Made by a program: the position numbers and the translations under genes. 64,000 nt of DNA from a virus: the UHGV virus genome UHGV-0120889; one strand, 5' to 3'. Within the stretch, counting starts at the first letter, position 1. Every line of letters begins with the position of its first letter. The notes under the pieces are model-generated. The model was not told the DNA's origin, did no database searches, and was given only the letters and a program-made list of their open reading frames with translations. Positions 57,588-62,777 of this stretch are shown here, one piece after another.

Positions 57588-57893
57588 ATGGCTAAATCTA
57601 AAGTTGAACTGTTCACCTCTCTTCCTTCTGACACTGCAGAACGTGATCGCCTTCGCAAAACAATTGAAGAACTGGTGGAACTCCAGCTTCAGATTAAAGA
57701 TTTGAAAGATGCCATCAAGGATATCATTCTTGTTGAGAAGCAGGATCATCTGTATTCTCCTAAATTCATCAAATCTTTGGTGGCTACAGAGTTTGATATC
57801 CGCTACGAAGCTGAAAAACGTCGCGCTAAGATTGAAGAAGAGGTTGAGCACATGTCTGAGGCAGACATTCTGTTCAAACGCTCTGTAGAATAA
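57588..57893 (+). CDS. hypothetical coiled-coil protein
   Basis: AAGGAGA RBS; helical charged sequence. Confidence 0.45.
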   Translation: MAKSKVELFTSLPSDTAERDRLRKTIEELVELQLQIKDLKDAIKDIILVEKQDHLYSPKFIKSLVATEFDIRYEAEKRRAKIEEEVEHMSEADILFKRSVE

Positions 57894-58938: not shown

Positions 58939-59147
58939 TAAACACACATGCATCTGAAGAGACATCCAAAGGAGTGACTATATGTCCCTTGACTGAGCCA
59001 GTGAAAGAGGAAAACTTCGATTCTGAAGATTCTCCATCTTCGCTCCAGGTAGATCCTGAGGTTGATGACCTAACGTGGGAGGACATCGTAGATATCTGGT
59101 TCTCTATTATGCCTGAGCACGAAGAGTTCAGGGGCGGCAGACTATGA
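58935..59147 (+). CDS. hypothetical acidic protein (70 aa)
   Basis: ORF track. Confidence 0.4.
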   Translation: MINTHASEETSKGVTICPLTEPVKEENFDSEDSPSSLQVDPEVDDLTWEDIVDIWFSIMPEHEEFRGGRL

Positions 59148-59186
59148 AGCACCGAGCCCACACAGGTTCCTCATGCTAAAGCATGG

Positions 59187-60376
59187 CCTGAAGAGGCAAA
59201 CGTGCATAATTCCAGCGTATTGGAACGCATAAAACCCTGTTCACACTCTCATTTTCCAGAGGAGATTTCATGAAGATAGAAATATTTGGTGGAGCTGACA
59301 ACACTCGTGGCCTGATTTACCTTGAATTCGAGGAATCATACCTGCCAGAGGTGTTAAATATAGACTCTGTTGCTGAGGCTTTGGGAGTAAACCCTAAAGA
59401 ACTCCACTCTTGTGCTGAGATCGATGGTTGGGAAGAGACCATGAACATTGATTTCAGTGAAGTAGAGGATGAACCGCTGGACTGACACACAATTAGCTGC
59501 CCGGCTAAAGTGCTGGAAGCACCTATAACACATCTTTCAACTAAATTTCCTACCACCACAATCACTTACCTCCCACACATGACTGTTTGCTTGTTTAGTG
59601 AGCAGTCATGCCTTGACATTCTTGCCTATCTTGATAAAATTAAGTTCTTCTCTTTTCTTTTACCGAGTAATTCGGGTTTTCTGTTCTCTTCGGTTTGAAG
59701 GGGTATGGAGATACACCTGAGTGAACAGGGTGAACAACCGAACCTTTGGCTATGGCATTAGCATGGCGAAGCGGACGGGTGACGAAAGAGGGGCCGGAGG
59801 ACACCAGTCACTGCCATATGATATATGGGTGATAACCTGAAGAGTCTGAATAAGTGTTTAAGTACCAGTCAGAGGAAAAGGTGAATGGTAGCCGAAGGGG
59901 GAGGGGGGTTTCTTGTATCTTTAATTTGTATATTATGTATACACTTGTAAACCAACACCATCTGAATTTGTTTACCACAGAAAGCGGATAGAGACAAATA
60001 TTACCTATTAAACTTGAATTATTTATAGAAAATACCACAACACCACTTAAGTATTTGATTTTACACATAAATCCTACAGATATTCACCCTCCATATTTAA
60101 CATACTTGTAACATATTCCATACTCTACCTGTCTGATCAATTTCCCCAACTACACCCACCATATTTTCCCTGTCTGTACCACCCCTGACCCGCCGGGAGT
60201 CCCGTCATATCTGGCTTTCCAGCAAATATCACACCCACAAATATCATTGCCTGAAGAGGGTTTCATCCCATAATACATGCCTTACCTGAAGAGCGCTTCA
60301 TACACCACGTAAATTTTTTAATTGACCCCCTCCCCGCCGCCGGAGAGGTTGTCTTTTCCCACACAGACCTGAAGAG
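59187..60376. repeat. five dispersed copies of 9-mer CCTGAAGAG in an ORF-poor region
   Basis: Exact copies at 59187, 59836, 60250, 60285, 60368 (all same orientation). Confidence 0.8.
59270..59485 (+). CDS. small acidic protein (MKIEIFGG N-terminus)
   Basis: GGAG RBS; N-terminus like family members. Confidence 0.4.
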   Translation: MKIEIFGGADNTRGLIYLEFEESYLPEVLNIDSVAEALGVNPKELHSCAEIDGWEETMNIDFSEVEDEPLD

Positions 60377-60903
60377 TCAGTCAGAAATATCTGAATGGAC
60401 CCAATTCTGCCCTGTCATGAGCGGTAGCGACTGGAGTGCTGCCAGGCGGACGAAATGGGAATACTTCTCATTCTTATAATAATTCTCAAATATCGAGGCA
60501 GTGAGGAAAATTAATAGGTGAGGCCGTTCACACAGTGGCACAACATTTGCAACCTATCTTGTGGGGGTGAATGAGAATACCTATCATTGTGAGAATAGTT
60601 ATCATTACGGGCAATTTAACATAATACCCATTATGCGCACCACTGGCGATCCATACAGGGATTGATAACATGAGTTACAGTTTACGCATATAACAATCAT
60701 ATTTCTTACTATTTGTGTGGGATATAGTTAGCAGCCGATAGATTAGATATTGACCTGTGGACTTCCAACCATCTAGACGTCTAAACGCCCACACAACAAG
60801 GATTATACATACATTACTGAATGTAAACAGGGCCGCAAAAATGCTACCATACCAGTTTGTAAATTTTTCATGCAGCACTTGACAAAGAGGAGGAAAACTT
60901 GTC

Positions 60904-61028
60904 TGACATAATGTGACCTAACTGACACAACATGACACTTTTACACACCTATTAGTTTACACACTGGATTGTTTACATTCCTGATTGTTCACATGCTAAC
61001 CATTTACATGATTGACTGTTTACACACC
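60904..61028. repeat. iteron-like arrays: TGACA x4 then TTTACA(C/T) x6 at ~16-bp spacing
   Basis: TGACA at 60904-60937; (T)GTTTACA-type units starting 60940, 60955, 60972, 60988, 61003, 61019. Confidence 0.7.
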
Positions 61029-61036
61029 GATAATCA

Positions 61037-61287
61037 GCCATGCCATTCGTTTGCATGACAATAATTATACATGACAATAATCGCACTGATTATAATTAGC
61101 ATGACATAATATAAAAGCAGGGCAACTATTAGCAGATCTATAGTTGCCTTGCTTGTCATGTCATGATTAACTAAATACAAGGCAACTATGATCTGATTAA
61201 TAGTTTGCAGACAAACTATCACGGGGGTGATGGTTACTGCTTTTATATTATGTCGCGACTCCGTCGCGCCATGCCATTCGTTTGCAT
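61037..61287. repeat. 251-bp element bounded by perfect 20-bp direct repeats with nested inverted repeats
   Basis: GCCATGCCATTCGTTTGCAT at 61037..61056 and 61268..61287; inner 15-bp inverted repeat 61106..61120 / 61237..61251; palindromes GGCAACTAT-N10-ATAGTTGCC (61121..61148) and 61181..61208. Confidence 0.8.
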
Positions 61288-61949
61288 AGTTGCCTTATTG
61301 TTACAGGTAAAATAATTGTATTGTTAATTATTTCTTATCTTTCTATTAGTCATCTAATGATTCCAGTTAGTATAGTAACGTACAGTAAACATTAGACGAC
61401 TAAAGATTTCTCTGCTTATGATAACCTAACGTGACAATTTCAGACTGTTTACGAAAAATGTTGACACCTGAGCTGATTTATGTTATGCAGTTTACACGAA
61501 TAATTATTTTATGCAGGTATTGACTATTCCGTTATTCTATGGTTGGAATAAATACTTAGCAGACTATAGAATGGTGAGCGTACGTAAATTCTGAGATCTG
61601 TCGGCTATAGTTATACTCGATTTTTCACGTAGAACACGCTTTTTGGTTTGTGTAAGTGTATGACTTATAAAGATTTTTAGTTGTTGACAAGATATTGGAG
61701 ATGTGCATCAGATTAAATTTTGTGCAATAGCTACATTACGTGCACTTTTGGAAGAAAAAACGTGTAAAAATGGCCCTGCTACCACACAATGAAAGATTAT
61801 GCAATAGTTATTTTATATGTATATTTGTACAGTGTGTGGGATTAATGGCTAGTCAATTATTCCACTTGCCAGGTAGGGCCGTTTATGGTAGGAGAAGAGC
61901 AGACAAAAAGAAAGGGGCCTTTAAGCCCCTTGATAATTCAATTAAGAAA

Positions 61950-62369
61950 TTATAATGATTCGTATATTTCAAAAATCCGATTTGCCAGGTCGTTACGGTA
62001 GCGGAATTTTTCATCACGCTTGATCATTAAATCCTTATAGCCGTACTCTTTAAGCACTTCATTAACTTTATGGCGGCATACCTGCATATTATCTTGAGCG
62101 TCACCAATAAATCTGTTGCTATGGTGCATGGCTTTAATTTCTTCTTCCAGGACCAGGGCAACTATGCGGACCGGATCAAGCTGATAGGCGGTAACATCCA
62201 TGCGGCATTGTAAACGGCTTTTTACGTCTGCCACCGGATATACTGCAACCTCTTCCCCGTCAACATTGACAATAATTAGTTTACCATCGATTTCGAATCC
62301 TTTCGCCGCCGGACCGTGACAAAAAGCGTTATCAAAGCTATATGCCGGATTATTAGATTTAATGTTCAT
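61950..62369 (-). CDS. hypothetical protein (139 aa)
   Basis: ORF track. Confidence 0.45.
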   Translation of the reverse strand: MNIKSNNPAYSFDNAFCHGPAAKGFEIDGKLIIVNVDGEEVAVYPVADVKSRLQCRMDVTAYQLDPVRIVALVLEEEIKAMHHSNRFIGDAQDNMQVCRHKVNEVLKEYGYKDLMIKRDEKFRYRNDLANRIFEIYESL

Positions 62370-62513
62370 GGTGTTTTTACCTCTTAGTTAATTTTCTTAC
62401 AACTTCCCTTCAAAAAAGAATATAGCAAAACTGCCGATCCCTGTCAACCAGGGATAGCATAATTTTTATGTGATCAAGGGGCTTTATTGCCCCTGACCAT
62501 GTAACTTGTTGTA

Positions 62514-62777
62514 TTATTTGTTGCTCATCCAGTTTTCCCAAGCTGCCTGATAATCTGCCTCACTACGGCGGATCTCTTCTTGCTCTTCAAGGCGGATCTC
62601 TTCTTCCAGGTACCCCAAGATGTCAGCCTTTTTAGTCTGGCGTAGCATCCAGTCATCTTTTTTGCGAGTGAAGATCTTATAAGCTTTCTCGCAAACCTCT
62701 TTTTTGCTACCTTTCTGGACTTCAAGAACACGATAAGCCATATATTGAACTAATTTGAGCTGATCAAGACGTTTCAT
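62514..62777 (-). CDS. hypothetical protein (87 aa)
   Basis: ORF track. Confidence 0.45.
   Translation of the reverse strand: MKRLDQLKLVQYMAYRVLEVQKGSKKEVCEKAYKIFTRKKDDWMLRQTKKADILGYLEEEIRLEEQEEIRRSEADYQAAWENWMSNK

Follow-up and report, generated by a model that had tools for sequence, protein, structure and literature searches.

The stretch of DNA analysed here (64,000 nt, hereafter the window) belongs to the virus genome UHGV-0120889, an rV5-like myovirus of the genus Vequintavirus that is matched by 120 phage records at 80-99%. The element in question, 251 bp bounded by perfect 20-bp direct repeats (61037-61287), is located within a gene-free gap of ~2.5 kb (59486-61949) that separates + strand genes ending at 59485 from convergent - strand genes ending at 61950, with 1.6 kb of non-coding DNA on the + side of the element and 0.7 kb on the - side. 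This gap corresponds to the "non-coding" box of the original rV5 paper, where a bidirectional terminator was expected and not found (Kropinski, 2013). The lowest G+C content of the window (0.347) occurs at 61001-62000 and the cumulative GC skew peaks at 59-61 kb. Rather than a discrete insertion, the 251 bp represent the central part of a conserved non-coding module, presumably with a control function, which rV5-like phages carry in the unique DNA next to their direct terminal repeat (DTR).

A terminal redundancy of 458 bp was reported for the vequintaviruses EdH4 and HdK5 (Korf, 2019). The EdH4 record begins and ends with the same 459 bp, which align to 60445-60903 of the window at ~95%, the DTR boundaries used here being transferred from EdH4 at that level of identity and not derived from the window phage itself. 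As the window crosses a single DTR copy, the source assembly is permuted or collapsed. The first 20-mer starts 134 bp from the right edge of the DTR (60903), inside unique DNA, with iterons filling the interval, and the DTR cut sites are 134 bp and 592 bp from the element. Mapping of the genome ends had been proposed in an earlier reading of this DNA made from the sequence alone (the sequence-only reading), and the end does adjoin the element instead of mapping elsewhere. The right edge of the DTR carries a box, CTTGACAA-GAGGAG-AAAACTTGTC, resembling the DTR edge of KPP-1 (Mydovirus; CTTGACAAGGAGAGAGAATTGTGT) and a box in Septuagintavirus-like phages. Phi92 (343 bp, annotated in its record) and Schickermooser (329 bp) have short terminal repeats as well, and that of KPP-1 was set at 514 bp by coverage and PhageTerm, which called its packaging T7-type. 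Measured from the DTR edge, the inverted repeat lies at 200 bp in the window and in EdH4, 208 bp in Schickermooser, ~250 bp in phi92 and ~310 bp in KPP-1. From left to right, the features are the following:

60445-60903, no strand: DTR of 459 bp, single copy in the window, mapped via EdH4; the ends of the virion DNA would be 60445 (left) and 60903 (right).
60904-61036, + strand: iteron tract (TGACAY, then TTTACA/TGTTTACA, ~16-bp spacing), a repeat family between the DTR edge and the first 20-mer.
61037-61056, + strand: first copy of the direct repeat (GCCATGCCATTCGTTTGCAT); 14 of 16 Vequintavirus-type sequences match it perfectly, and isim and the lone copy of FV3 each show one mismatch.
61057-61102, + strand: hypervariable spacer, here with CATGACAATAAT twice; in the alignment relatives have CAAGTTAACAAT-type repeats in its place, some with an inserted + strand terminator-like hairpin cassette.
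61103-61120, no strand: left inverted-repeat arm, whose - strand reads CTGCTTTTATATTATGTC (stem base plus U-tract); identical in all 15 core-bearing relatives.
61115-61154, - strand: hairpin 1 (GGCAACTAT palindrome) followed by UUUUAUAUUAU; -21.1 kcal/mol, z -4.1; leftward terminator candidate.
61178-61205, no strand: second, imperfect GGCAACTAT palindrome, for which the fold also allows long-range pairing with hairpin 1.
61207-61251, + strand: hairpin 2 (GCAG..AACTATCAC-GGGG-GTGATGGTT..CTGC) followed by UUUUAUAUUAU; -16.6 kcal/mol, z -3.3; rightward terminator candidate.
61237-61254, no strand: right inverted-repeat arm, partner of 61103-61120.
61254-61268, + strand: small GC hairpin (CGCGAC-TCC-GTCGCG), placed after the right arm and ahead of repeat 2; -9.6 kcal/mol.
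61268-61287, + strand: direct repeat copy 2, the same 20-mer.
61286-61294, - strand: fourth GGCAACTAT copy, overlapping the end of repeat 2 and kept in FV3.

The direct repeats described in the sequence-only reading were confirmed at 61037 and 61268 (231 bp from start to start), and no further copy of the 20-mer with up to three mismatches was detected on either strand of the 64 kb, two matches being reached in none of 100 shuffles. The inverted repeat was also found, with a length of 18 bp and not the 15 bp first given, and its arms (GACATAATATAAAAGCAG at 61103-61120 and CTGCTTTTATATTATGTC at 61237-61254) are 100% complementary; with an A-rich outer half in the left arm and a T-rich one in the right, they close a compound palindrome formed by the inner 152 bp (61103-61254). 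Regarding the two palindromes proposed on GGCAACTAT, the first is of good quality (15-nt arms at 61115-61129 and 61140-61154, 93% complementary, one G.T pair) and the second (GGCAACTAT ... ATAGTTTGC) is imperfect. This motif occurs seven times in the window vs 0.66 expected, a count attained in 0 of 100 shuffles, with four copies clustered within 61121-61294 and a fifth at 62157. Either strand presents a strong local hairpin followed directly by the identical tail UUUUAUAUUAU, and the 18 bp of the inverted repeat coincide exactly with the stem base and the A-tract/U-tract of these two predicted terminator signals. Compared with shuffles, a 264-nt stretch folds with z -8.3 on each strand; the earlier suggestion of a long structured single strand was borne out as a property, the folding molecule and its role being suggested rather than observed.

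That no gene explains this architecture, as had been stated, was supported by the indels and inserts that break the open reading frames (ORFs) in relatives and by the lack of any coding sequence annotated across the element in the records of annotated relatives. A coding reading of the ORFs at 61034-61222 (-) and 61205-61315 (+) was rejected on account of +1/-1 indels and variable inserts that break both frames in relatives. A search of Rfam (E<=1, 59000-62500, both strands) gave no matches. A miniature array of the clustered regularly interspaced short palindromic repeat type was discarded as well, as these have repeats of ~24-40 bp and spacers of ~30-40 bp and here 20-bp repeats enclose 207-319 bp of conserved structured DNA.

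Conservation was assessed in 16 Vequintavirus-type sequences, IMG/VR and metagenome contigs among them. Both 20-mers are kept in 15 of these with a spacing of 227-339 bp, the distance from repeat 1 to the left arm being variable (61-141 bp) and that from the right arm to repeat 2 fixed. Identity to the window amounts to ~99% across 61101-61300 and ~88-97% elsewhere in the gap. The iteron tract is the least conserved part of the gap, with iteron sets that differ between relatives (iterons and spacer, 68-81% identity over all relatives; iteron tract, 76-83% over aligned positions). Between repeat 1 and the left arm, short AT-rich repeats make up a swappable cassette, where Murica, TP5, phita32 and ev158 hold an extra inserted hairpin cassette; inspected by eye, the latter shows a terminator-like CACCC-CTTC-GGGTG stem followed by TTTCTAT on the + strand, a stem that is absent from the minimum-energy fold of the Murica insert. 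This extra cassette (L007 2620-2665; equivalents in L008, L009 and L010) has two or three hairpins and, also by eye, reads GGTGACC-TTT-GGTCACC, then CACCCCTTCGGGTG, then TTTCT, a stem plus T-run of terminator-like appearance. A separate 33-bp insert is found inside the core of TP5 and phita32.

The sequence-only reading had also suggested looking for relatives that lack exactly the inner part plus one repeat, and one such phage was found. FV3 alone has a single 20-mer and an empty interior with both flanks intact; at the junction the left and right flanks match those of isim, and the remaining copy carries the repeat-1 variant of isim. No further contiguous empty junction of this type was detected among the 120 matching records or in IMG/VR. 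The parsimonious reading of the FV3 state would be that an isim-like ancestor lost the interior when its direct repeats recombined, a precise loss of the core that is possible because the 20-mers are direct repeats. Since FV3 is a propagated phage, the core would be dispensable for propagation, that is, accessory and not essential, provided that the FV3 sequence is correct. The absence of the interior from this phage rules out the packaging-site and origin options of the earlier reading insofar as they made the interior indispensable.

Counterparts of the module are present in other genera of the Vequintavirinae. In five Septuagintavirus-like phages (LTH01, W70, UPEC06, A5-4 and A7_1; 79-89% identical to LTH01 in the region) a perfect 15-bp direct repeat (CCATACTCTGGCAAT), with copies 406-430 bp apart, encloses a perfect 16-bp inverted repeat (GACACTATAAAACGAG / CTCGTTTTATAGTGTC), and past the right arm GCTCCCTACGGTCGCGCCA precedes repeat 2, matching the order in the window. 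KPP-1 bears a perfect 21-bp inverted repeat ~310 bp inward from the edge of the terminal repeat mapped for it, then a ..TCGCGCCA box, and has a genus-specific repeat pair, CCACGAT[A/T]ACGCGAACGA, that brackets the right arm only. The small GC hairpin of the window (61254-61268) lies within a box (GTC GC..CG.TCGCGCCA) common to two other genera of the subfamily. The arms of the three genera (GACATAATATAAAAGCAG, GACACTATAAAACGAG and (AGC)GACACAATAACACGGGAG), each perfectly complementary to its partner, can be aligned with one another, and paired substitutions preserve perfect complementarity per genus. The direct repeats (GCCATGCCATTCGTTTGCAT, CCATACTCTGGCAAT and that of KPP-1) are in each case paired and placed after the common ..TCGCGCCA box; they are partly alignable between genera (GCCATtCgtTtGCAT vs GCCATaCtcTgGCAAT) and the copies are alike within each genus. 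The covariation of the arms over 116-164 bp would indicate pairing in a single strand, and repeat pairs that changed in concert would indicate a common recognition factor or a need for copy identity; a one-off target duplication is insufficient to account for the latter pattern because both copies changed together between genera.

A further counterpart of ~165-185 nt (L022 533-695, L023 590-772, L025 1496-1661, also L029, L036, L039 and L041) was found in another subfamily, Stephanstirmvirinae, namely in Phapecoctavirus, phi92 and Klebsiella phages. It is located 208-250 bp inside the terminal repeat in the mapped cases, Schickermooser and phi92, the DTR of the related Klebsiella phage being unmapped. 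In Phapecoctavirus it lies on the side of a 139-aa gene, which is not annotated there in phi92 or the Klebsiella phage. In an alignment of seven sequences fitted to a covariance model, 97.7% of cells are paired and 15 of 57 pairs show double changes; none of 500 shuffles was as good and slid controls were far lower. Several G.U pairs are invariant, the counterpart of the small GC hairpin covaries, and the folding energies favour one strand over the other by 14-20 kcal/mol. In Vequintavirus the + strand of the window, which is the same strand as in Stephanstirmvirinae, folds 5-12 kcal/mol better, and no strand asymmetry was observed in Septuagintavirus-like phages or Mydovirus. The phi92-like counterpart is a candidate new structured RNA family.

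This phi92/phAPEC8/Klebsiella element (model R1) shares with that of the window its position relative to the DTR and the 139-aa gene, a closing inverted repeat with A-rich 5' arm and T-rich 3' arm, internal hairpins, a small GC hairpin past the right arm followed by repeated motifs, and the hairpin AACTATC..GATGGTT; by eye, the inner hairpin within hairpin 2 resembles AACTATC-GG-TGATGGTT of phi92. It differs in its flanking repeats, which are copies of the arm motif GCTAATNAT, and in the strand asymmetry, strong there and modest in the genus of the window. The covariance model built on it did not detect the Vequintavirinae elements; because the model does not cross, homology between the subfamilies rests on layout and one common hairpin. 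A protein-anchored search for the locus in IMG/VR retrieved close relatives only.

Based on this evidence, the interpretation preferred here, to which a probability of about 0.35 is assigned, is that the module is a convergent terminator/insulator flanked by paired protein-binding sites. On the + strand the hairpin at 61207-61240 is followed by UUUUAUAUUAU and coincides with a terminator scan match at 61214-61235; on the - strand the same tail follows the hairpin at 61154-61115, where the Murica record independently annotates a - strand terminator. A hairpin and a U-rich tract within 0-2 nt of each other are thus present on each strand, at the 3' ends of convergent units. The convergent terminator/insulator is favoured because, according to the scan, the element is the first strong + strand terminator signal past the end of the + block (59485) and the last - strand signal before the DTR. 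The predicted pair of convergent, overlapping intrinsic terminators would stop leftward RNA polymerase from the - strand block at ~61104 and rightward polymerase from the + strand block, which on concatemers would already have crossed the terminal repeat, at ~61251. The effect would be to insulate the terminal repeat, the iteron/packaging region and the antisense strand of neighbouring genes. As the 20-mers are invariant within the genus and changed together between genera, the bracketing copies may represent paired sites for a lineage-specific DNA-binding factor, possibly tied to recognition of the end. Like known convergent Rho-independent terminators, the element combines a GC-containing hairpin and a U-tract per strand, A-/T-tract outer halves and a location between convergent blocks; it differs from them in having two hairpins 60-90 nt apart within a 152-bp compound palindrome instead of one common stem, in its extreme conservation, in the 20-bp direct repeats, in the terminus 134 bp away and in sister-genus equivalents devoid of canonical local terminators.

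Several observations, however, weigh against this interpretation. Terminator-like sites were not predicted at the equivalent arms of LTH01 or KPP-1, and in Schickermooser the terminator scan gave an internal hairpin match only; canonical local terminators at the arms are predicted only in Vequintavirus, and termination may not be the function of the family as a whole. The - strand block has a terminator of its own at 61931-61912, and a structure of 152 bp conserved at 99% exceeds the needs of a terminator. In Phapecoctavirus the flanking genes are co-directional and not convergent, and the better-folding strand is antisense to them. A terminator alone leaves the 20-mers unexplained, the more so as the KPP-1 pair brackets just the right arm, and termination at the element is deduced from predicted hairpins; a literature search retrieved no vequintavirus transcriptome.

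A broader proposal, put forward tentatively, is that the module belongs to a hitherto unrecognised family of structured elements, made of folded RNA or single-stranded DNA and linked to the terminus, in Vequintavirinae and Stephanstirmvirinae; its core and co-evolving repeats would contribute to the production or recognition of the short terminal repeat, or prime replication from it. The main rival of the terminator, possible though somewhat less probable, is a role in packaging or in processing of the concatemer junction, with the core and repeated sites aiding recognition by terminase or duplication of the DTR. It is consistent with the occurrence of the module in unique DNA beside the DTR in every lineage with known DTR, with the iterons occupying the interval between DTR edge and repeat 1, and with the T7-type packaging of KPP-1. 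On the T7 concatemer the RNA polymerase pauses at the junction, engages gp18/gp19 and starts packaging (PMC3276506). By analogy, terminase might be recruited by a polymerase that pauses or halts at the structure, and a link between a transcription stop and end processing is possible. In both systems a signal of the structure or pause type occurs in the unique DNA that adjoins a short DTR, but T7 relies on an RNA polymerase of its own together with a short class II signal, whereas rV5-like phages do not have a phage RNA polymerase, share no sequence similarity with it in this signal and can dispense with the core, as in FV3. A hairpin end on T7 concatemers is said to have been proposed by Chung in 1990 as a processing intermediate.

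Repeated short sites by the cut, with lineage-specific recognition sequences, are also a feature of the lambda cosB R-sites and the hexamer clusters of P1 pac. The putative recognition sites of the element likewise adjoin the cut position and are lineage-specific; they differ in comprising only two copies, at 227-339 bp from each other and with cuts 134 and 592 bp off. A packaging role is further weakened by FV3, which is propagated without the core and one repeat, so that only the retained 20-mer and the iterons could be essential; by the variable spacing of the 20-mers, which argues against a fixed protein-DNA geometry; and by two reports in which vequintavirus genomes were called circularly permuted or headful. 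The element does adjoin the physical genome end as placed via EdH4, but this constant position may merely reflect common ancestry and synteny.

Less likely is a stand-alone or processed structured non-coding RNA of ~150-190 nt, its ends paired via the arms, with a function in regulation or against the host that has no connection with the genome end. The strong covariation, invariant G.U pairs and strand preference of the phi92/phAPEC8-like counterpart, the better folding of the + strand in Vequintavirus, a core that is more conserved than its flanks and its dispensability in FV3 agree with such a molecule, as do a TATAAT that precedes the left arm of the window element by 6 nt (61091-61096) and a TTGACA box upstream of the left arm in Septuagintavirus-like phages. 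However, the segment upstream of the left arm is hypervariable, the terminator-like hairpin of the Murica type leaves no room for a promoter, and the promoter scan gave no + strand site between 60274 and 61347; a conserved canonical sigma-70 promoter directly upstream of the core was found neither in the window and its relatives nor in LTH01, KPP-1 and Schickermooser. The absence of Rfam matches and of strand asymmetry in Septuagintavirus-like phages and Mydovirus adds to these objections, and since the covariance model of the other subfamily misses the window element, the evidence for an RNA applies to it by analogy.

Distinctly improbable is a replication origin or single-strand initiation signal in which iterons, an AT-rich region and a hairpin palindrome would load helicase/primase. 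The G+C minimum, the GC skew peak, the iteron arrays and the repeated GGCAACTAT sites fit this proposal, and the better-folding strand (in Stephanstirmvirinae and, modestly, in Vequintavirus) runs 5' to 3' from the DTR inward and would serve as lagging-strand template whenever forks enter from the repeat. As in the iteron origins of lambda (ori) and plasmids, direct repeats co-evolving with a presumed binding protein are accompanied by AT-rich DNA and a palindrome; unlike them, the element has two long sites instead of an array and a deletable core, and no initiator gene is identifiable nearby, the neighbouring ORFs having no Pfam matches. The absence of the core from FV3 speaks against an origin. 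Phages that also replicate through recombination, such as T4 and T7, can tolerate the loss of one. The skew switch coincides with a change in the direction of transcription, as already noted by Kropinski, and is confounded by it.

The suggestion of a miniature mobile insertion with a 20-bp target duplication, or of a segment excised by a recombinase at the 20-mers, is suited by the precise empty site of FV3 with its one repeat copy and is otherwise effectively excluded, as the arms do not abut the direct repeats (46 bp away on the left, 61-141 bp start to start in relatives, and 13 bp on the right), 20 bp exceeds typical transposon target duplications, each genome or record has one copy, the site is empty in only 1 of 120 matching records, homologous modules occur in other genera beside the same gene and, where mapped, beside the terminal repeat, with both repeat copies changed in concert, and the 20-mer, absent from 185,579 GTDB species genomes, was recovered from IMG/VR and metagenomes in just four phage contigs of the same type, with two copies each. 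A miniature inverted-repeat transposable element was rejected for lack of inverted repeats abutting duplications and of copies at multiple or unrelated loci, and a host attachment site or host origin for lack of matches to the element in 5,426 E. coli genomes and to the 20-mer in the GTDB set.

Other features of the region deserve mention. Within the gap, a non-coding block at 59651-59950 shows 98-100% identity in the relatives that align there, above that of neighbouring genes; it is purine-rich, has an unremarkable structure (z -1.0) and no Rfam match, and is preceded by a near-consensus sigma-70 promoter at 59613-59640 (TTGACA, 16 nt, TAAAAT, with TG). Inside the DTR, tandem 18-bp repeats at 60572-60606 (TGAGAATACCTATCATT / TGAGAATAGTTATCATT) are annotated as repeat_region in records of Danish wastewater phages, with similar AATGAGAATAATTATCATT motifs in tuntematon and a related AATGAGAATAATT repeat in the KPP-1 DTR; these may resemble a Fur box (GATAATGATAATCATTATC).

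Among the neighbouring genes, the 139-aa ORF at 61950-62369 (-), of unknown function, has ~90% amino-acid identity with its homolog in Phapecoctavirus and is always the gene nearest to this genome end, and it contains the fifth GGCAACTAT site (62157). It is missing from FV3, nomo and EdH4, a distribution that points to exchange or loss of terminus-proximal genes. The 87-aa ORF at 62514-62777 (-) is labelled "DNA translocase FtsK" in several GenBank records; no Pfam matches were obtained at E<=0.01 for this ORF, nor for the remainder of the six neighbouring ORFs searched, and the label is probably a propagated mis-annotation. The 101-aa ORF at 57588-57893 (+) is conserved across Vequintavirinae genera with 42-60% identity (Klebsiella, Salmonella, Cronobacter and Erwinia phages) and is described in some records as "transcriptional regulator" or "double-stranded DNA-binding protein"; its product is a possible candidate for the repeat-binding factor.

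The module is described neither in the rV5 paper nor in the other papers examined, and matches no Rfam family. Its constituent signals (terminators, terminus-proximal repeats and iterons) are known; what is unreported is their combination, a compound palindrome with co-evolving direct repeats that occupies a similar position beside a short terminal repeat in the mapped lineages of both subfamilies. The ~2.5-kb non-coding box had never before been dissected, and the physical genome end is now placed inside it, in a group of rV5-like, phi92-like and phAPEC8-like phages that are widely used in therapy cocktails and typing sets. FV3 represents a natural knockout of the repeat-and-hairpin module, which makes the latter testable by deletion. 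If the module served only as a transcription stop, it would supply the bidirectional terminator missed by the original rV5 annotation. A role in end processing would give the many myoviruses with T7-type packaging, for which no packaging signals are known, a signal for that step acting in cis. With such a role, or one in replication, the module would be the first cis signal to be defined in the group and would matter for the engineering and rebooting of these genomes as well as for the interpretation of terminus predictions.

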